From positions 160,685 to 224,684 of the forward strand of contig NZ_WJIE01000009.1 in assembly GCF_009649845.1 (NCBI RefSeq): a stretch of DNA of 64,000 bases, written 5' to 3'. Position 1 is the stretch's first letter. Every line of letters begins with the position of its first letter. The translations under genes and the position numbers were made by a program. The DNA is from Polyangium spumosum (GTDB taxonomy: Bacteria > Myxococcota_A > Polyangia > Polyangiales > Polyangiaceae). Shown here in pieces: positions 2,721 through 13,944 of this stretch. Below the pieces are notes generated by a model. The model worked only from the letters and a program-made list of their open reading frames with translations. It was not told the origin of the DNA and made no database searches.

Positions 2721-2931
2721 GGGGGGCGCCGACCATACCACGAAGCGGAGCGAGTGGGAGAAGGGGGAACGCGGGCGGGCGGCAGGGCGGACGGAGTCGG
2801 GAGGGTCGGCAGAAAAATGACGCAGCTCACAGTTGCGTCCGAGCGTCCCCTGGTTGTAATCTGCGATCGAGCAAGGTCACGTGGGGTACACTCACGGGCC
2901 GACCTCCGCGTTTTTGACTCAGGAGTGTGAT

Positions 2932-3180
2932 ATGCAGACGAGCTTGCTGAACGACTTTCTCTCGGAGATGGTGCTCGACCCCGCGAAGCTCGCGGCGTAC
3001 ATCGTCGACCCGCAGGGGACGATGAAGGCCGCCGGGCTCGGCGCCGACGACCAGAAGGCCCTCGAGAGCACGGACCAGACCGCGATTCACGCCCGCATTG
3101 CGGACGGCGACGCGGCGGCGCGCGCGCACAAGGTCGGCACGGTGACCGATATTTACGCTTACGCGATGCAATTCGCGTAG
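2932..3180 (+). CDS. putative split-borosin precursor peptide (SonA-like), 82 aa
   Basis: ATG at 2932 is preceded by AGGAGT. The N-terminal helical region LLNDFLSEMVLDPAKLAAYIVDPQGTMKAAGLGADDQKALESTD resembles the SonA borosin-binding domain (LSDFF...NPEAVMRAHGLTDEQ), recalled from memory. The C-terminus VGTVTDIYAYAMQFA is hydrophobic. It lies 150 nt upstream of a borosin-type methyltransferase. Confidence 0.55.
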   Translation: MQTSLLNDFLSEMVLDPAKLAAYIVDPQGTMKAAGLGADDQKALESTDQTAIHARIADGDAAARAHKVGTVTDIYAYAMQFA

Positions 3181-3330
3181 CGTGCGCGCGCGGTCGTCAA
3201 GACCGGGGTACGCGGCGAACCCTGCGATGCAGTGCAGCGCAGGGGAATTGATGAATTCCGACCCGCTCGTGCCCGGCCCGCTCCACCCAGGGGCGAAGCC
3301 GGGCGTTTTCATTTTCGAGGAGGACGCTCG

Positions 3331-4164
3331 ATGAACAAAGGCTCGCTCGTCGTCGTGGGGACGGGCATACAGACCGTGGGACACATCACCCCGGAGGCCA
3401 TCGCCTGGATCAAATGGGCGGACACGGTCCTCTATCTCGTCGCGGATCTGGTCGCAGAGAACGCGATCCTGAAGATCAAGCCGGATGCCCAGACCCTCGA
3501 GCATCTGTACGAGAAAAACAAGCCGCGGTACTTGACCTACCGACAGATGATGAATCGCATGATCGATTCCGTGCGAAATGGAAACCGCACGTGCGTCGCG
3601 CTTTATGGCCACCCGGGCGTCTTCGCGTATCCGGCGCACGCCGCCATCCGGAAGCTGCGCGAGGAGGGGTACGAGGCCCGCATGTTGCCCGGCGTCTCGG
3701 CCGAGGACTGCCTGTTCGCCGACCTCAACGTGGATCCCGCGACGTACGGCTGTCAGAGCTACGAGGCGACGCATTTCGTGCTCACGCGGCGACGCCCCGA
3801 CACCAGCGCCTCGCTCATCCTGTGGCAGCCCGACTCGTTCGGGCACGTCCTGTCGAGCCTCGACGTCCGGCAGAGCGCCATCGCCGTGCTGGCCGAGTAT
3901 CTGGCGAAGTTCTACTCCCTCGAGCACCGCCTCTGCATCTACGAGGCGCCCATGTACATAGGCTGCGCACCCCGGATGGACTGGGTGAAGCTCGGCGAGT
4001 TCACCCAGGCCAAACTCACGCCCGCGAGCACGCTTTATTTCCCGCCGGCCGAGGTTGCCCCCATGGACCATGCGCTGGCGCAATCCCTCGGCCTGCCGTC
4101 GATGGCCCAGGTGCAGGAGGACCTCGCGCGCCTCGATGCGTCGCCTGCCGCGAAGGCGGAGTGA
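3331..4164 (+). CDS. class III SAM (tetrapyrrole-methylase fold) alpha-N-methyltransferase, borosin OphMA/SonM-like
   Basis: ATG at 3331 with a GAGGAGGA RBS. Motifs [64 protein letters not shown] and LYFPP...LGLP parallel the OphMA motifs [56 protein letters not shown] and FYVPP...LGLP. Confidence 0.75.
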   Translation: [277 protein letters not shown]

Positions 4165-4174
4165 CGCGCTCCCC

Positions 4175-5389
4175 TCAAAAAGCCTCGGGGCACCACGGCG
4201 CGCGGGTCGAGCGGAAGAGCCGATCGGCCCGCCCCGCCGCGCCCTCTTCGAGCACCTCGACGCGCCCCCCGTCGGCGAGCTGCGTGAACGAGATCCCACC
4301 GAGATAGGCCGACCCGAGCGCCTCGGCGGGCAGCCGCAGGTCCGGCGATTCGTTCGTCGGTACCGCGCGGCCCTCCGCGCCGTCGAGGCGGAATCGCCCC
4401 GTGTTCCAGGGGCAAAACGTATCCTCGATCTCGAGCACGATCGAATCCCGCGCCCCGTACGTGCGCGCTGCGAGCGCCGCGGGCACGTCCACGATACGCA
4501 CCCACAGCGCGTCGTACGTGCTGAAATGCAGGCAGCGTGGCTCGGCGAGCAGGACGAAGAGAGGGTGATCGACGGGCAGGTTCGTCGCCGTTACCTGGCG
4601 CATGAGGTCGATGTCGAGGAGGTAACGCCAGACGGCGCGCGTGCCGGCGGGGCTCTGGCCGACGGCCTCGATGACGTTCAGGGTCCCGGCGGTGACGTGC
4701 CCGTCCCATTTGTGTTCGACGCGGTAGAGCGCATACGCCTCGGGGCGACCGTCGAGCTCGACGAACACGCGCTGCAGCGGGCCCTTGCCTGCGCGCGCCG
4801 CCTCGGGGTCGGCGAGGCGCCGCCTCTGCCACCACGCGGCGGAGCGGGAGGGCATTCCAGGGTGGAGCTTTCGGGCGCTGTCCCAGAGGGGCGGGAAGAG
4901 CTCGGCCGCCTGGGCCTCGGTGACGAGGCGGGCGCGGCAGGAGAGGGGACGCCGGTCGGCGAAGGAGGCCGCTGATCGCTCGAGGGAGATGTCGCCCGCG
5001 AGGGAGGCGAGCCCATAACCATACCGCCCATAGATGGGGCCTTCGGTGGTCCACAACGTGGCGATGGCCTGCTTGCGGGCGCGGGCCTCGTCGAGGTGCA
5101 CGCGCATCATGGCCGAGAGGACGCCGCGGCGGCGGTGCGTCGGCATGACCCCGACCATGGTCAGGCCCGCGCAGGCGACCTCGCCGCCGCCGGGGACGCT
5201 GAGGGTGATCGACAACGCGCCGCCGCCGCCGACGACCGCGCCGTCTTCGTACGCCACGAAGCGCGTCTCGAATTCGGCCATGGGGCCGCGCGCGGGGGGC
5301 TCGGGTGGGGGGGTGATCCCGAAGGCCGTGCGGATGGGCAGGAGGAGGTCCTCGATGTGCTCGGGACCCACCAGGCGGACGTCGATCAT
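4175..5389 (-). CDS. Eis-like GNAT N-acetyltransferase (GNAT plus a C-terminal SCP2-like region)
   Basis: Length 404 aa. The GNAT core contains HRRRGVLSAMM. The overall Eis/COG4552-like architecture is recognised from memory. It is convergent with the methyltransferase. Confidence 0.65.
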   Translation of the reverse strand: MIDVRLVGPEHIEDLLLPIRTAFGITPPPEPPARGPMAEFETRFVAYEDGAVVGGGGALSITLSVPGGGEVACAGLTMVGVMPTHRRRGVLSAMMRVHLDEARARKQAIATLWTTEGPIYGRYGYGLASLAGDISLERSAASFADRRPLSCRARLVTEAQAAELFPPLWDSARKLHPGMPSRSAAWWQRRRLADPEAARAGKGPLQRVFVELDGRPEAYALYRVEHKWDGHVTAGTLNVIEAVGQSPAGTRAVWRYLLDIDLMRQVTATNLPVDHPLFVLLAEPRCLHFSTYDALWVRIVDVPAALAARTYGARDSIVLEIEDTFCPWNTGRFRLDGAEGRAVPTNESPDLRLPAEALGSAYLGGISFTQLADGGRVEVLEEGAAGRADRLFRSTRAPWCPEAF

Positions 5390-5429: not shown

Positions 5430-6719
5430 TCAGTGGCAGCAAGTCCCGCTCGCCCAGGCCACGCCGCCGCCGGACCGGTAGATCACCACGTTGCCGTCGT
5501 TCTGCACGGCGAGGTTCGCGAAGTAATTCGACGACCCGTTCGTGTTCGTGTCCCATACGGCATTGCCATTGGACTTGTAGATCACGAGGTTGCCGTCCTC
5601 CTGCATGATCACGCGGTCGCCGCCGTCGCCGTTCGTGTTCGAGTCCCAGAGCGCCTGGCTGCCCTTGTAGAGCACGAAGTTGCCGTCGCTCTGGAACTTG
5701 AGCTGGAAGCGGCCGTCGCACGACCAGACGGATTGCTCCGCCCCCAATCCCTGGCCGGCGTTCAGCCAGCCGCAGCCCGAGGGCGACGTGTACGCGCCGT
5801 AACGCGACCAGATGCCGGCGTGATCGTCGTAATTGAGCGAGGTGTCGTTGCCGCTGTAATAGGCGTACATGGTCGCGCTCGAGACCGTCGAGTGGCCGAG
5901 GCCGAGGGCGTGCCCGATCTCGTGCAGCGCGACCGTCTCCAGGTACGCCGACGACCAGCCCTCGGCGTCGTCGAAATGCACGTCGCCGCCGAGGCCGCCG
6001 CCGGGGGACCAGGCGTGGGCGAGCACGCCGCCCGAGCCGTCGAACGTATTGCTGGTGCCGCAACCATGGTCGCCCGTGTAGAACCCGAACGAGATGTTCT
6101 CGCCGGAGGTGACCTCGTTGAAGTTCAGGTTCGAGATGGAGGTCCACGAGCGAATGGCGTTCCAGAGCGCCGTGCGGACGGTCGACGCGCTGATGTCGGA
6201 GGTGTAATTCGCGAACTTGTACGTCAGGGTCGTGGACGACCAGGTCCCTCCGAGGTGCGAATAGGGGTCGATGTCGAGATCCCATCGCGGGACGACGCTC
6301 GGCGGGTCGTAATAATCGGGGTGACCGCAGCGGGGCATCTCCATGACCTTCTGCGTCTCGGCGTCGACGACGCCGGTCACGGCCAGGCCATTCTGGGCCT
6401 GGAAGAGGCGCACGCCCTCCTCGATCGCCTCGTCGAAGCGCGCTGGGTCGGCCGGCTCGCGCGAGACGGCGGGGGTCCAGCCGGGGAAATGCTCGGCGAG
6501 CTCCTCGTTCTGGTAATACCCGTACCGGCGAAGGTACTCGTAGACCGCCTTCACGTCCTGCCCCTGCGCGCCGAGGCCGAGGCCCGCGGATTCCATGGTG
6601 GTCTCGTCGCCGAGCGTCGTGATGTCGTCGGCCGCGCAGCCCACGAGGGCGAGCGAAGCAGCAGCGAGGGGCGCGAGGAAAAGAGCGAGGCGAGAGTCGA
6701 AGCGGTTCGTCGAGGCCAT
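5430..6719 (-). CDS. secreted matrixin-like (M10) zinc metalloprotease with a C-terminal bulb-type (B-) lectin domain
   Basis: Signal peptide followed by a PG-binding-like region, PRCGHPD (cysteine-switch-like), HEIGHALGLGH (HExxHxxGxxH) and a Met-turn region. The C-terminal stretch QSDGNFVLY...WDSNT...QEDGNLVIY...WDTNT is bulb-lectin-like. Start 6719 is chosen because a GGAGA RBS precedes it. Confidence 0.75.
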   Translation of the reverse strand: MASTNRFDSRLALFLAPLAAASLALVGCAADDITTLGDETTMESAGLGLGAQGQDVKAVYEYLRRYGYYQNEELAEHFPGWTPAVSREPADPARFDEAIEEGVRLFQAQNGLAVTGVVDAETQKVMEMPRCGHPDYYDPPSVVPRWDLDIDPYSHLGGTWSSTTLTYKFANYTSDISASTVRTALWNAIRSWTSISNLNFNEVTSGENISFGFYTGDHGCGTSNTFDGSGGVLAHAWSPGGGLGGDVHFDDAEGWSSAYLETVALHEIGHALGLGHSTVSSATMYAYYSGNDTSLNYDDHAGIWSRYGAYTSPSGCGWLNAGQGLGAEQSVWSCDGRFQLKFQSDGNFVLYKGSQALWDSNTNGDGGDRVIMQEDGNLVIYKSNGNAVWDTNTNGSSNYFANLAVQNDGNVVIYRSGGGVAWASGTCCH

Positions 6720-6949
6720 CTGAACATTCTCCATTGAGGGGGACGCGAGCTTCCTTCGCCTCTCACCTATCGCAACGGCCATGCCAGCTCGGCGGGACGC
6801 GGCTAACTGTCCGGAAGGATTGGGGGTCTTGGGGATCGAGGTGGAGGGCGAGCTCTCCGGGCGGGTGAGGGTTGAGGGCGCGGACCTCCAAGGGTGGAGG
6901 CTGGGACCACCAACCGGGTGGGCGGGGCGCGGGGCGCGGGGCGCGGGGG

Positions 6950-7310
6950 CACCACGACGTCGTCGTCGTCGTCTGCAATCACGCCGGCATCGTGTGCCGT
7001 CACACCCTCATCGTCTGCAACCACGACGTCGTCGTCTGCAATCACGCCGGCATCGTGTGCCGTCACACCCTCATCGTCTGCAACCACGACGTCGTCGTCT
7101 GCAATCACGCCGGCATCGTGTGCCTTCACACCGGCGTCGTCTGCAACCACGACGGCATCGTCTGCAATCACGCCGGCATCGTCTGCAATCACGACGGCAT
7201 CGTGTGCCGTCAGACCGGCGTCGTTTGCAATCACGACGGCGTCGTCTGCAACCACGACGGCGTCGTCTGCAACCACGACGGCGTCGTCTGCAATCACGAC
7301 GGCGGGACCC
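6950..7310. repeat. tandem minisatellite with a 21-nt unit (consensus GGCGTCGTCTGCAACCACGAC), about 17 copies, with a 63-nt higher-order unit repeated three times
   Basis: Read directly from the sequence. The copies carry point variants (aac/aat, gac/gcc, ggc/atc). It has no spacers, so it is not a CRISPR. Confidence 0.85.
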
Positions 7311-7331
7311 GCTCGGGCCCACGCCGACCGA

Positions 7332-7790
7332 TCAGAACCGCCCCACCACCACGATCCCCTGCGTCTGCGCACTCACGACCGGCGCCACGGTCACCTTCAC
7401 CGGCGCCGCGGCCGGGTGCAGCTCCGGGTTGATCCACGCGAGCGCCAATCCAAGAAACACCCCCGCCGCGCCGACGCCGAGCGACGTCGTCGCCGTACGC
7501 CCGTCCGCCGTCGCTTGCTCGCGCAGGCGGTAGCCCTCGGCGTCGCACTTGTCCGGATCCGACGTGAGGCAATGCTGCTTCAATGCAGCGGTCGCCTCGT
7601 CCGAGCGCGCCGCGTAAATGGCCCCCGCGACGATGGCGCCGACCCCGGCGCCGATCACGAGCGAGCCCGCGACACGAGGGCCCGTCCAGAAAGGAGGCGA
7701 CGGCGGAGGCGAAGGCGCCGCGGGCGGAGGCTCGGCCGAGGCGATCGCGGGGAGGAGGAGTGCGGCGAGGAAAATGGGCAGGGGGCGCAT
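7332..7790 (-). CDS. hypothetical secreted/membrane protein
   Basis: N-terminal signal peptide MRPLPIFLAALLLPAIASA and hydrophobic Gly/Ala segments. Its start lies 2 nt from the stop of the upstream ATPase gene. Confidence 0.45.
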   Translation of the reverse strand: MRPLPIFLAALLLPAIASAEPPPAAPSPPPSPPFWTGPRVAGSLVIGAGVGAIVAGAIYAARSDEATAALKQHCLTSDPDKCDAEGYRLREQATADGRTATTSLGVGAAGVFLGLALAWINPELHPAAAPVKVTVAPVVSAQTQGIVVVGRF

Positions 7791-11397: not shown

Positions 11398-13944
11398 ATG
11401 CTTCGCCTCGCCCCACGCACCTGTGTTTTGGCCCTTGGGATTGGCTCGATCCTCGCCGGTTGCACCGAGCCGGACGCGACGAAGGCGCCCGCCGGACCAC
11501 CGGCGCCGCTCGCCGACGTCGAGCTCGTCGTGGACGAGCTCGGCATCACCCACGTCTACGCGAGGTCCGACGCGGACGCGTTTTTCGGGGCGGGATACGC
11601 GATGGCGCGGGATCGGCTCTTTCACATGGAGCTCATGCGCCGGAGGGCAGCGGGGACACGCGCGGAGCTCGTGGGCGTGAAGGTGCTCGACGACGACGTG
11701 ATGGCCCGGACGATGAACTTCACGAAGCTCGGCGAGGCCGACGAGGCGCGGGTGCGGGCCGAGCGTCCCGAGGAGGCGGCGCTCTTCGACGCGTGGACCG
11801 CGGGCGTGAACCTTCGAATCGAGGAGGTGCGGAGCGGCGCGGCGCCGCGGCCGTTCGGCATGCGCGAATCGGAGCTCGATTTTTTGCCGGAGCCCTGGGC
11901 GTCGCACGAGGCGTTCGCGGTGGGCAAGCTGCTCTCGTTCGGCATGTCGAACAGCCTCGATCGCGACATCCTGGCCACGGCCGTCGCGCGGATGGCGCCC
12001 GAGACGGCAGAGCGATTGCCGGTGCTCATGCCCGCGTTCGACGTGTTCCCGGGCGCGCCGGCGGGAGCCGGGGGCAACGCGGCGCCTGCGCCGGGCCCGT
12101 TCGGCCCGCCCGGCCCGCCGAAGGCCGACGCCGCGGCGTTCCCGCGCGACTACGAGCCGATCATGCGCGAGACGGCCTCGAACAACTGGGCGCTCGCGGG
12201 CAAACACACCGAGAGCGGCAGGCCCTACGTGTGCGGGGATCCGCATCAATCACTGACGAGCCCCTCGCGCTTCTGGGCCGTGCACATGAACAGCGCCGAG
12301 GCCGGCGGCACGCTCGACGTCGTGGGCTTCTCGTTCGTCGGCACGCCGACGGTGCAGCTCGGGCACAACGCGCACATCGGATGGACGGCGACGACGAACT
12401 TCGCGGACGTGATGGATCTGTGGGACGTCGCGCCCGACGCCGCGTACGAGAGCGTCTCGGTCGGCGGCGAGACGGTGCCGCTCGTCAAGCGCGACGAGGT
12501 GTTCCGGGTGATCGCGCCGGGCGCGAAGGCGGGGACGTTCGTGGACGAGGTGACGGTCGAGATCGCGGAGGTGCCGGGGTACGGCGTGATCCTGCCGGAC
12601 GAGATGTTACCCATCCCGCGCCCGCTGCTCGCCGACGGGCGGCTGCTCTTCAACTGGACGGGCTTTGCGCCCTCGATGGAGGCGGTCGCGTACCTCGAGA
12701 TCGACCGGGCGAAGGACATCGACGCGTTCGAGGAGGCGGCCTCGATCCTGGAGGTCGGCGCGGCGAACTTCGTGGCGGCCGACGCGAAGGAGATCGACAT
12801 GTTCGTCCACGCGCGGGTCCCCGATCGCGGCGACCCGAGCGCGCGCCCGATGCCGTGGCGATCGATCACGGACCCCGAGGATCCCGCGAGTTACTGGACG
12901 CGCGGGGATCTGCCGGCGGACAGGATGCCGAAGCGGCGGGATCCTCCCGAGGGCTTTCTCTTCACGGCGAACACGGATCCGTTCGGCTTCACGCAGGACG
13001 GCGTGGTGGAGAACGACCCCTATTATTACGGCGCGTTCTACGCGAACGGCTTCCGGGGATACCGGATCGAGCAGGCGATCGAGGAGCTCGTCGCGTCGGG
13101 CGCGAAGGTCGATCGCGCGGCGATGGAGGAGCTGCAACGCGACGTGCGGAGCCCACTCGCCGATACGATCGTGCCGCTCCTGGAAGAGGCGCTCGCGAAC
13201 GTGGAGGCGGATCCGGCGCTCGCCGCGTACAAGGGTCGGGCGGATCTCGTGGCGTACGCGGCGAAGCTCTCGGCGTGGGATCGAGAGATGCGGGCGGATC
13301 GCGGCGAGCCCGTGATGTTCAACGCGCTCGTCTGGTTCGCGGCGCGGCGCGTGTTCGAGAAGCCGATGACGTCGGCGCTCTTCGGCGCGATCCACGAGGC
13401 CTCACCGCCGTTTTTCCTGGGCATGCTGCACAACGTGCTCACGAACCGGTTCGCCGACGCCTCGTACTTCGCGCCGGACGGGGCGCGCGTGCTGCTGCTC
13501 GCGGCGCTCGACGAGGCGTCCGCGTGGATCACGACGCGCTTCGGCTCGATCGACGCGGACTTCGAGCTCGGCGACGTGCAAGGCGCGCTCTTCCAGTCGG
13601 ACCTGCCGGGGAGCGCGTGGGACACGGAGCCGATGGCCGTGGGCGGCGCGTCGGACACGATCAACGTCGCGCCGACGCGGTTCTTCGACGGTAACGAGCC
13701 GGCCGCGTACTTCGAGTCGACGGAGATGTCGCTCTACCGCATGGTCGTGGGCTTCGCGGCGGACGGGACGCCCGAGGCCACGGTGAACTTCGGGCGGGGC
13801 AACAGCGCCGAGCCGGACAGCCCGCATTACGACGACCAGGACGCGGCGTGGACGAGCGTGACGTACGCGCCGCTGCCGTTCCGGCGCGCCGACGTGGAGG
13901 CCCGAGAGGAGTCGCGGGTGATACTCGCCGGCGGAGGCAAGTAG
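11398..13944 (+). CDS. penicillin-amidase (S45, Ntn-hydrolase) family lipoprotein, AHL/penicillin acylase-like
   Basis: Lipobox ILAGC. The N-terminus of the alpha-subunit is homologous to penicillin acylases. ETASNNWALAG contains the Ntn Ser of the beta-subunit. Length 848 aa. Confidence 0.8.
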   Translation: MLRLAPRTCVLALGIGSILAGCTEPDATKAPAGPPAPLADVELVVDELGITHVYARSDADAFFGAGYAMARDRLFHMELMRRRAAGTRAELVGVKVLDDDVMARTMNFTKLGEADEARVRAERPEEAALFDAWTAGVNLRIEEVRSGAAPRPFGMRESELDFLPEPWASHEAFAVGKLLSFGMSNSLDRDILATAVARMAPETAERLPVLMPAFDVFPGAPAGAGGNAAPAPGPFGPPGPPKADAAAFPRDYEPIMRETASNNWALAGKHTESGRPYVCGDPHQSLTSPSRFWAVHMNSAEAGGTLDVVGFSFVGTPTVQLGHNAHIGWTATTNFADVMDLWDVAPDAAYESVSVGGETVPLVKRDEVFRVIAPGAKAGTFVDEVTVEIAEVPGYGVILPDEMLPIPRPLLADGRLLFNWTGFAPSMEAVAYLEIDRAKDIDAFEEAASILEVGAANFVAADAKEIDMFVHARVPDRGDPSARPMPWRSITDPEDPASYWTRGDLPADRMPKRRDPPEGFLFTANTDPFGFTQDGVVENDPYYYGAFYANGFRGYRIEQAIEELVASGAKVDRAAMEELQRDVRSPLADTIVPLLEEALANVEADPALAAYKGRADLVAYAAKLSAWDREMRADRGEPVMFNALVWFAARRVFEKPMTSALFGAIHEASPPFFLGMLHNVLTNRFADASYFAPDGARVLLLAALDEASAWITTRFGSIDADFELGDVQGALFQSDLPGSAWDTEPMAVGGASDTINVAPTRFFDGNEPAAYFESTEMSLYRMVVGFAADGTPEATVNFGRGNSAEPDSPHYDDQDAAWTSVTYAPLPFRRADVEAREESRVILAGGGK

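Follow-up and report, generated by a model that had tools for sequence, protein, structure and literature searches.

The DNA analyzed here (the window) is a 64-kb stretch of Polyangium spumosum contig NZ_WJIE01000009.1, and its subject is a pair of adjacent genes at positions 2932 to 4164: a small open reading frame (ORF) and a methyltransferase gene, located on the same strand and 150 bp apart. A first-pass annotation had proposed that the two form a split borosin cluster, in which the small ORF would encode the precursor of a ribosomally synthesized and posttranslationally modified peptide (RiPP) and its neighbor would encode the α-N-methyltransferase. Backbone N-methylation confers protease resistance and membrane permeability on peptides. 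To our knowledge, very few borosin products have been described, and a single bacterial one has had its structure solved. We computed homology, fold, residue conservation, coding status, and synteny for the pair. The locus has the following features.

2920..2925, + strand: Shine-Dalgarno-like AGGAGT, 6 nt 5' of the ATG of the small ORF (read from the sequence)
2932..3180, + strand: predicted precursor peptide gene, 82 amino acids (aa), WP_153822658.1, fused to a SonA-type borosin-binding domain (BBD) (ORF; ATG at 2932, stop at 3178-3180)
2944..3102, + strand: BBD, residues 5-57, five-helix bundle, predicted leader and docking domain (AF2, Foldseek, and library matches)
3121..3138, + strand: invariant RAHKVG junction, residues 64-69, at the boundary of conserved leader and variable tail (alignment A1)
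3139..3177, + strand: hypervariable C-terminal tail TVTDIYAYAMQFA, residues 70-82, putative core (nonconserved; disordered in the model)
3270..3305, + strand: GC-rich 14-bp hairpin in the 150-bp spacer between the two genes, followed by TTTTCATTTTC (3306-3316) (folding)
3317..3323, + strand: Shine-Dalgarno sequence GAGGAGG of the methyltransferase gene (read from the sequence)
3331..4164, + strand: predicted SonM-type borosin α-N-methyltransferase, 277 aa, WP_153822659.1 (ORF; ATG at 3331, stop at 4162-4164)
4175..5389, - strand: Eis-family GNAT N-acetyltransferase, 404 aa, WP_153822660.1 (Pfam Acetyltransf_9, Acetyltransf_17, and SCP2_2)

The methyltransferase is closest to SonM

The sole Pfam domain of the 277-aa enzyme was TP_methylase (PF00590, 7.5e-18). 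Against solved structures, the enzyme matched the borosin methyltransferases SonM (4.8e-56), MroMA (4e-51), dbOphM (4e-47), and OphMA (2e-44), with an overall range of 5e-56 to 4e-43 for these relatives, whereas the solved corrin methylases ranged from 1e-4 to 6e-3 (CbiF, 1e-4; SUMT, 8.5e-4). The E values of the two groups differ by about 50 orders of magnitude in favor of the borosin enzymes. WP_153822659.1 aligned end to end with the 263-aa SonM at 42% identity. Residues Y58, R67, Y71, and Y93 of SonM correspond to Y60, R66, Y70, and Y92, and SonM F99, E146, W166, and Q167 correspond to F98, E145, W165, and Q166; all eight are conserved. The catalytic and lock roles of these SonM residues are known from mutagenesis and crystallography (PMC8429565).

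Two further regions, read from the sequence by letters, were YGHP at residues 92-95 (LYGHPGVF, 91-98) and DCLFAD at residues 126-131 (EDCLFADL, 125-132). These are the signature regions of the BorosinMT rule of antiSMASH (10.1101/2021.12.24.474128). The enzyme itself carries no BBD: Pfam identified none, and the BBD profile had no match to it by tblastn.

The first-pass annotation had described the motifs of this enzyme as those of borosin methyltransferases rather than of CobA/SUMT or RsmI, and the distance to the corrin methylases and the retention of the key residues bear this out. The motifs that it quoted are present at residues 4-20, 92-106, and 118-141, with LYFPP at 235-239 and LGLP at 253-256. 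Its "clasp-like" C-terminal region, however, corresponds to the last part of the SonM-type catalytic domain and the tail of about 20 aa behind it, not to a BBD-carrying extension of the OphMA type.

The small ORF encodes a SonA-like borosin-binding domain

The small ORF is a coding gene and not a chance frame, because its GC content by codon position (0.65/0.42/0.92) resembles that of the neighboring genes, its codon log-odds are +0.54 bits/codon in frame compared with about -1.0 in the other two frames, and its place directly upstream of the methyltransferase gene is conserved. An identical protein is on record for P. spumosum (WP_153822658.1). A longer product starting at GTG 2881 was unsupported, as all homologues begin M[QK]T[ST]LLNDF. 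The 82-aa length and the AGGAGT ribosome-binding site at 2920-2925 agree with the first-pass description of a small ORF, immediately upstream, with its own ribosome-binding site.

A precursor profile built from four close homologues was searched against 1.84 billion representative proteins and gave 171 library matches at E <= 1e-3. Nearly all of the best 150 of these 171 align through precursor residues ~6-58, and many of the matches listed are proteins of 60 to 120 aa with hydrophobic C termini. A 50-sequence alignment of such library proteins (A3) matched the PDB chain of SonA over residues 1-60 (3.4e-13); its next matches were the C-terminal BBDs of dbOphMA, OphMA, and MroMA (4e-4 to 5e-3), and gallate dioxygenase, a LigA relative, reached just 0.0086.

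The structural model pointed in the same direction. With the 50-sequence alignment, AF2 placed helices at residues 5-15, 17-25, 27-34, 38-46, and 49-57, with block-mean predicted local distance difference test (pLDDT) scores of 87-94 for residues 11-50 and a disordered tail; a shallow 4-sequence alignment had given a poor model (pLDDT, 59.8). The top 33 Foldseek PDB matches were all BBDs of SonA or OphMA/dbOphMA, and the model superposed on SonA chains with a root mean square deviation of 0.9-1.1 Å over ~50 residues and a target TM-score of up to 0.90. The BBD is defined in the literature as a five-helix bundle in the leader, and the modeled leader of this precursor fits that definition. The first-pass annotation had noted that the N-terminal ~45 residues mirror the BBD of SonA, and the SonA sequence that it quoted agrees with the PDB chain. 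The profile match and the ~1-Å agreement in fold support this likeness, and the LLNDF...ESTD segment lies at residues 5-48.

These comparisons also bear on a nonborosin explanation, according to which the enzyme is a methylase of the tetrapyrrole, YabN, or RsmI type and the small ORF is a LigA-like dioxygenase subunit or no gene at all. Automated names lean that way. Pfam sees a generic TP_methylase alone, the top NCBIfam matches of the enzyme are YabN, CysG, and Cob models, and UniRef names the small ORF LigA-like (Pfam LigA, 0.048). The NCBIfam matches are nevertheless far under the models' own cutoffs (CysG and SUMT, ~5e-5), and the borosin enzymes lead by the wide margin given above. Pfam LigA (PF07746) scored 14.2 bits on the small ORF against a cutoff of 25.3, the profile matched SonA at 3e-13 and gallate dioxygenase at only 0.0086, and LigAB ranked 34th by fold. 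No annotated neighboring ORF matched the extradiol dioxygenase (LigB) family, and the coding statistics and synteny of the small ORF are strong. SonA itself bears the same misleading LigA name in the PDB. The nonborosin explanation is thus highly improbable and effectively refuted. Both homology comparisons instead favor the split borosin assignment, the methyltransferase being nearest to SonM/OphMA rather than to corrin methylases and the small-ORF profile matching SonA.

The pair is conserved in related loci

A small BBD ORF was located directly 5' of the methyltransferase gene in L001 (Polyangium sp. 15x6), in JGI metagenome contigs, and in L005, L006, L007, L009, and L011, as expected if the small ORF belongs with the enzyme. 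L001 has the same order as the window: malic enzyme, precursor, methyltransferase (82% identical), and convergent GNAT. In the JGI contigs, the small ORF has 84 aa and the methyltransferase behind it has 277 aa. In L011, a 98-aa ORF precedes the methyltransferase, and in L009, an ORF of 80 aa is followed by a methyltransferase with 68% identity and then by a convergent GNAT. In the more distant L005, L006, and L007 (methyltransferase, 53-54% identical), BBD ORFs of 89 to 91 aa lie 83 bp upstream. No upstream BBD ORF was found in the part inspected of L002 and L003. Scans with the methyltransferase recovered three loci in the genome collection and one in the metagenome collection; the close clade is therefore rare in those collections. 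No further copy of the BBD or of the methyltransferase was found within the 64-kb window.

The spacer between the two genes contains a hairpin with a folding energy of -33 kcal/mol (z, -2.8), and equivalent spacer hairpins are present in L001 (z, -3.85) and L009 (z, -2.2). A promoter/terminator scan of the locus returned no promoter and no plus-strand terminator, and the hairpin was detected by folding only. Leaky terminators are common between RiPP precursor and enzyme genes, and the hairpin may be a leaky terminator or attenuator. Downstream of it, the first six bases (GAGGAG) of the Shine-Dalgarno sequence of the methyltransferase gene are invariant in a four-locus alignment.

Polyangium genomes carry several paralogous borosin-type methyltransferases that are 50-57% identical to WP_153822659.1. 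P. spumosum has at least three borosin-type methyltransferases (paralogues P0019 and P0042, on an 851,980-bp contig), and other Polyangium paralogues are P0016 and P0060 (Polyangium sp. 6x1) and P0018 (P. sorediatum). In the 102-aa P0144, a BBD runs directly into a borosin methyltransferase N terminus, which may represent an N-terminal fusion of BBD and N-methyltransferase (type 0-like) or a truncated contig. The borosin module occupies different contexts in different genomes. The precursor gene (66.3% G+C) and the methyltransferase gene (64.9%) are among the lowest in G+C in the window, where the mean is 71.0% (standard deviation, 2.7% over 1-kb windows); the GNAT gene has 72.1%. The low G+C of the pair is a mild hint of foreign origin.

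The pair is predicted to be a type IV split borosin module

Each defining feature of type IV split borosins that could be tested was present in the pair, and we conclude that it very probably constitutes a type IV (SonM/SonA-like) module. A split borosin of type V-VIII, with the BBD on the methyltransferase and a repetitive precursor (DVDV/TEVX), was rejected; here the BBD is on the precursor and none is on the enzyme.

Several observations weigh against this assignment. As a single sequence, the small ORF matches SonA weakly (E, ~1), and only the family profile makes the match significant. WP_153822659.1 has a deletion at the SonM top-clamp residue E173, and the position of SonM F179, which reads the aromatic residue preceding the first methylation site, seems to be Leu when the alignment is inspected by eye; regiospecificity is therefore not transferable from SonA. 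The spacer hairpin has almost no covariation across its three sequences, and among the window neighbors and in L001 there is no conserved protease, transporter, or GGDEF gene near the pair.

Lee et al. 2024 (10.1101/2024.01.09.574750) include the accession WP_153822659.1 in three of their supplementary trees, namely, the diversity-maximized N-methyltransferase, BBD, and SspM-homologue trees. Because these are published borosin trees derived with RODEO, the P. spumosum pair is already catalogued computationally, as an uncharacterized member of a well-mined class. The RODEO-mined set comprises 2,699 methyltransferases and 3,064 predicted precursors (10.1101/2024.01.09.574750). More than 1,600 split borosin clusters have been reported, and no borosin type is commoner than type IV, whose 746 representative enzymes account for 78.8% of the methyltransferase network (10.1101/2021.12.24.474128). 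The first-pass annotation, which stressed few characterized members and new chemistry, thus overstated the novelty: characterized split borosins are few, but their genes abound in genomes, and this enzyme is already listed. With the family exhaustively mined, the architecture the commonest, and the enzyme already in a data set, the discovery value is small. No paper that characterizes or discusses a myxobacterial borosin was found in the literature searched, and a myxobacterial pair with an aromatic core would broaden the substrate range known for discrete N-methyltransferases and might yield a new metabolite. Only the partnership with the Eis-type GNAT and the AHKV junction, duplicated in relatives, appear new.

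An invariant junction separates the conserved leader from a hypervariable tail

In an alignment of close homologues, 52 columns are invariant up to G69 and just 2 in the tail (Y77 and A82). Where the leaders of homologues share 72-78% identity overall, the tail is not conserved. Hypervariable tails behind conserved leaders are a classical mark of RiPP precursors. The tails that follow the junction are given below.

P. spumosum (window): TVTDIYAYAMQFA
Polyangium sp. 15x6 (L001/P0002): TIYYYSSYPAEC-AHKV-IQVYAGYPLQASV
P0003: TVYYYASYPADR-AHKV-ITITAGYPMQAAL
P0004: WTYYYSYPTEDAAV
P0125: IIEVKYALSID after ARAHK (junction reads ARAHKI)

AHKV occurs again in L001/P0002 and P0003, ahead of another core-like unit, so that P. 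spumosum has one such unit and Polyangium sp. 15x6 has two. The first-pass annotation had proposed the last 15 residues of the precursor, VGTVTDIYAYAMQFA, as the methylation core; this segment is present at residues 68-82 and is a plausible core. In SonA, the main determinant is a bulky aromatic residue, Y62, right before the first site. Applied to P. spumosum, this rule would point to the Y75-A76, Y77-A78, and F81-A82 region of the tail, whereas a linear register counted from the BBD places SonA Y62-I65 opposite R64-K67 and would favor the junction.

The register and the junction motif raise the possibility that methylation at or near RAHKVG serves as a processing mark and that a methylation-dependent protease then frees one or more Tyr-rich peptides without backbone methyls, as for SamA1 and SamP. 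In Shewanella amazonensis, methylated Phe52 remains on the leader as a recognition mark for the protease, and the released peptide is unmethylated (10.1101/2024.01.09.574750). The occurrence of the invariant AHKV before each of two core-like units in P0002, P0003, and L001 would fit a recognition or cleavage motif. The register argument, however, presupposes linkers of equal length, no A1 aspartic or conserved peptidase lies near the pair among the window neighbors or in L001, and SonA-type products retain their methyls, shewanellamide A being a 16-mer with two N-methyls (PMC10549244). We regard a processing mark as unlikely, although worth keeping in mind.

A further alternative is that the 82-aa protein, once methylated, is already the final product and acts as a small modified protein with a regulatory or structural role, from which no peptide is released. 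In the loci compared, neither a protease nor an exporter is conserved with the pair, and for most type IV clusters no metabolite is known, while such clusters often lie beside signaling (GGDEF) genes (10.1101/2021.12.24.474128). On the other hand, the hypervariable tail, conserved leader, and duplicated core-like units form the signature of a processed RiPP precursor, and both characterized bacterial systems are cleaved (10.1101/2024.01.09.574750; PMC10549244). This makes an intact end product quite improbable and a cleaved RiPP precursor the preferred interpretation.

A convergent Eis-type GNAT accompanies the pair

The GNAT gene, which the first-pass annotation had overlooked, lies 10 bp past the stop codon of the methyltransferase gene on the opposite strand, so that the two genes converge. 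Its best solved relatives are Eis2 (1.8e-59) and Mycobacterium tuberculosis Eis (2.6e-33). It occupies the same position and orientation in three other loci.

L001, 6845-8059: GNAT, 86% identical
L004, 901-2157: GNAT, 70% identical
L009, 3167-4301: GNAT

In all four loci, the GNAT gene lies within 10 bp of the methyltransferase gene or overlaps it, and the outer flanks differ. The gene past the GNAT is a matrixin gene in the window, a VgrG-like ORF in L001 (by eye from the translation), and a helix-turn-helix regulator gene in L004, and the upstream genes differ between the Polyangium genomes and L009. The convergent GNAT was absent from the 53-54% identical relatives examined.

Lee et al. noted an acetyltransferase in the sam borosin cluster and BBD-GNAT fusions elsewhere (10.1101/2024.01.09.574750). 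Because of these precedents, a functional link between the GNAT and the borosin pair is plausible, which makes this enzyme a candidate for tailoring or immunity. A bolder proposal is that precursor, methyltransferase, and Eis-type GNAT belong together as a module of three genes and represent a borosin subclass of the Polyangiaceae not yet described, in which Tyr-rich cores delimited by AHKV are N-methylated and then acetylated. Acetylation may occur at the new N terminus or on the invariant Lys; alternatively, the GNAT may inactivate the product for self-protection. We consider the proposal speculative and, as a whole, doubtful. If true, it would mean that a myxobacterium makes a new aromatic linear peptide that is both N-methylated and N-acetylated.

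Proposed mechanism

By homology with SonM/SonA, we infer docking, methylation and its sites, cleavage, and a role for the GNAT as follows. The 82-aa product would serve as the RiPP precursor, and its BBD (residues ~5-57) would dock on the 277-aa methyltransferase, which is presumably a homodimer like SonM. Docking would deliver the disordered tail (residues ~60-82) into the clamp-enclosed active site, where one or a few backbone amide nitrogens would be methylated in the N-to-C direction in an S-adenosylmethionine (SAM)-dependent manner. Residues Y60, R66, and Y70 would stabilize the imidate/oxyanion and position the substrate, and Y92, F98, and W165 would bind the cofactor and form the "bottom lock." Release of a short linear peptide would then fall to a protease encoded elsewhere. 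The GC-rich hairpin in the spacer may set the ratio of precursor to enzyme, and a possible role of the convergent Eis-type GNAT is to acetylate the product or detoxify it.

Comparison with characterized systems

The closest characterized system is SonM/SonA of Shewanella oneidensis MR-1 (PDB 7LTC and 7LTE; shewanellamide A). Both systems pair a discrete TP_methylase-only enzyme of ~260-280 aa with a separate precursor of ~70-80 aa that has an N-terminal five-helix BBD and a short C-terminal tail, and in both the genes are adjacent. The hosts differ, as P. spumosum is a myxobacterium and the BBD-precursor group has been described as dominated by Pseudomonadota (10.1101/2024.01.09.574750). The SonA tail is YLVISHGNGD, whereas that of P. 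spumosum is aromatic and Ala rich. Unlike SonM/SonA, the P. spumosum pair also has the invariant RAHKVG junction, the deletion of E173, an apparent Leu at the F179 position (by eye), and an extra enzyme C-tail of ~20 aa. Its conserved neighbor is the Eis-type GNAT, in contrast to genes for GGDEF proteins, transfer-messenger RNA, or aspartic peptidases.

The SamM1/SamA1/SamP system (shewasin A) of S. amazonensis is likewise a type IV pair with a BBD-fused precursor and an acetyltransferase gene in the cluster, and its methylation adjacent to aromatic residues can be counted as a further likeness. The sam cluster, however, includes a gene for a pepsin-like A1 peptidase that depends on the methyl mark, and none was seen beside the P. 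spumosum pair. The sam acetyltransferase belongs to PF13302, whereas the P. spumosum GNAT is of the Eis type, and the peptide released from SamA1 is highly anionic, whereas the P. spumosum tail is hydrophobic and aromatic.

The fungal type I enzymes OphMA, dbOphMA, and MroMA share a homologous methyltransferase domain, a BBD, and the same proposed chemistry. In those systems, enzyme, BBD, and core form one autocatalytic polypeptide and the product is macrocyclized, whereas P. spumosum has separate genes and no macrocyclase. CbiF, CobA/SUMT, and the YabN N-terminal domain share the TP_methylase fold and the N-terminal GxGxG SAM-binding region, but the similarity to these corrin and siroheme methylases is N-terminal only, extending over ~125 residues for the solved corrin methylases and up to ~165 for the YabN model.

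Other neighboring genes and a tandem repeat

Beyond the GNAT gene, the window contains the following features.

5430-6782, - strand: secreted M10 matrixin with peptidoglycan-binding and B-lectin domains (Pfam)
6967-7303, within ORFs 6872-7432 (+) and 6803-7372 (-): 21-nt tandem repeat, 16 copies, 63-nt superunit, flanked by the matrixin gene and a hypothetical gene of 152 aa
7792-11238, - strand: 1,148-aa STAND/NACHT-like nucleoside triphosphatase (NTPase) (annotation of neighbors)
11398-13944, + strand: penicillin-amidase family protein (annotation of neighbors)

The matrixin, the STAND/NACHT-like NTPase, and the penicillin-amidase protein appear unlinked to the borosin pair. The first-pass annotation had seen no protease nearby; the matrixin is one, though it is missing from the syntenic L001. 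A role for it as a conserved maturation protease was rejected, since L004 and L009 lack it as well.

The plus frame of the tandem repeat encodes V-C-N/R-H-D/A/T-G/V/L-I/V heptads with coding-like codon usage (+0.34 bits/codon; G+C at third codon positions [GC3], 0.81). The minus frame encodes A-D-D-A-V-V-V heptads (-0.16 bits/codon; GC3, 0.66), which superficially resemble the acidic/aliphatic repeat cores of type VI-VIII borosins. The repeat was considered as a second, type VI-VIII-like borosin substrate, a possibility disfavored by the poor codon usage of the ADDAVVV frame. The ORFs spanning the repeat had no significant Pfam match. A chimeric homology query returned no matches, although low-complexity words probably saturated its candidate list. 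In GenBank, the matrixin is MRG95845 and the product of the 152-aa gene is MRG95847; the number between them, MRG95846, is skipped, and therefore a gene was probably annotated at the repeat. A G-rich 7-nt repeat, GCGGGGC, is present in 3.9 copies at 6922-6948, immediately 5' of the 21-nt array.

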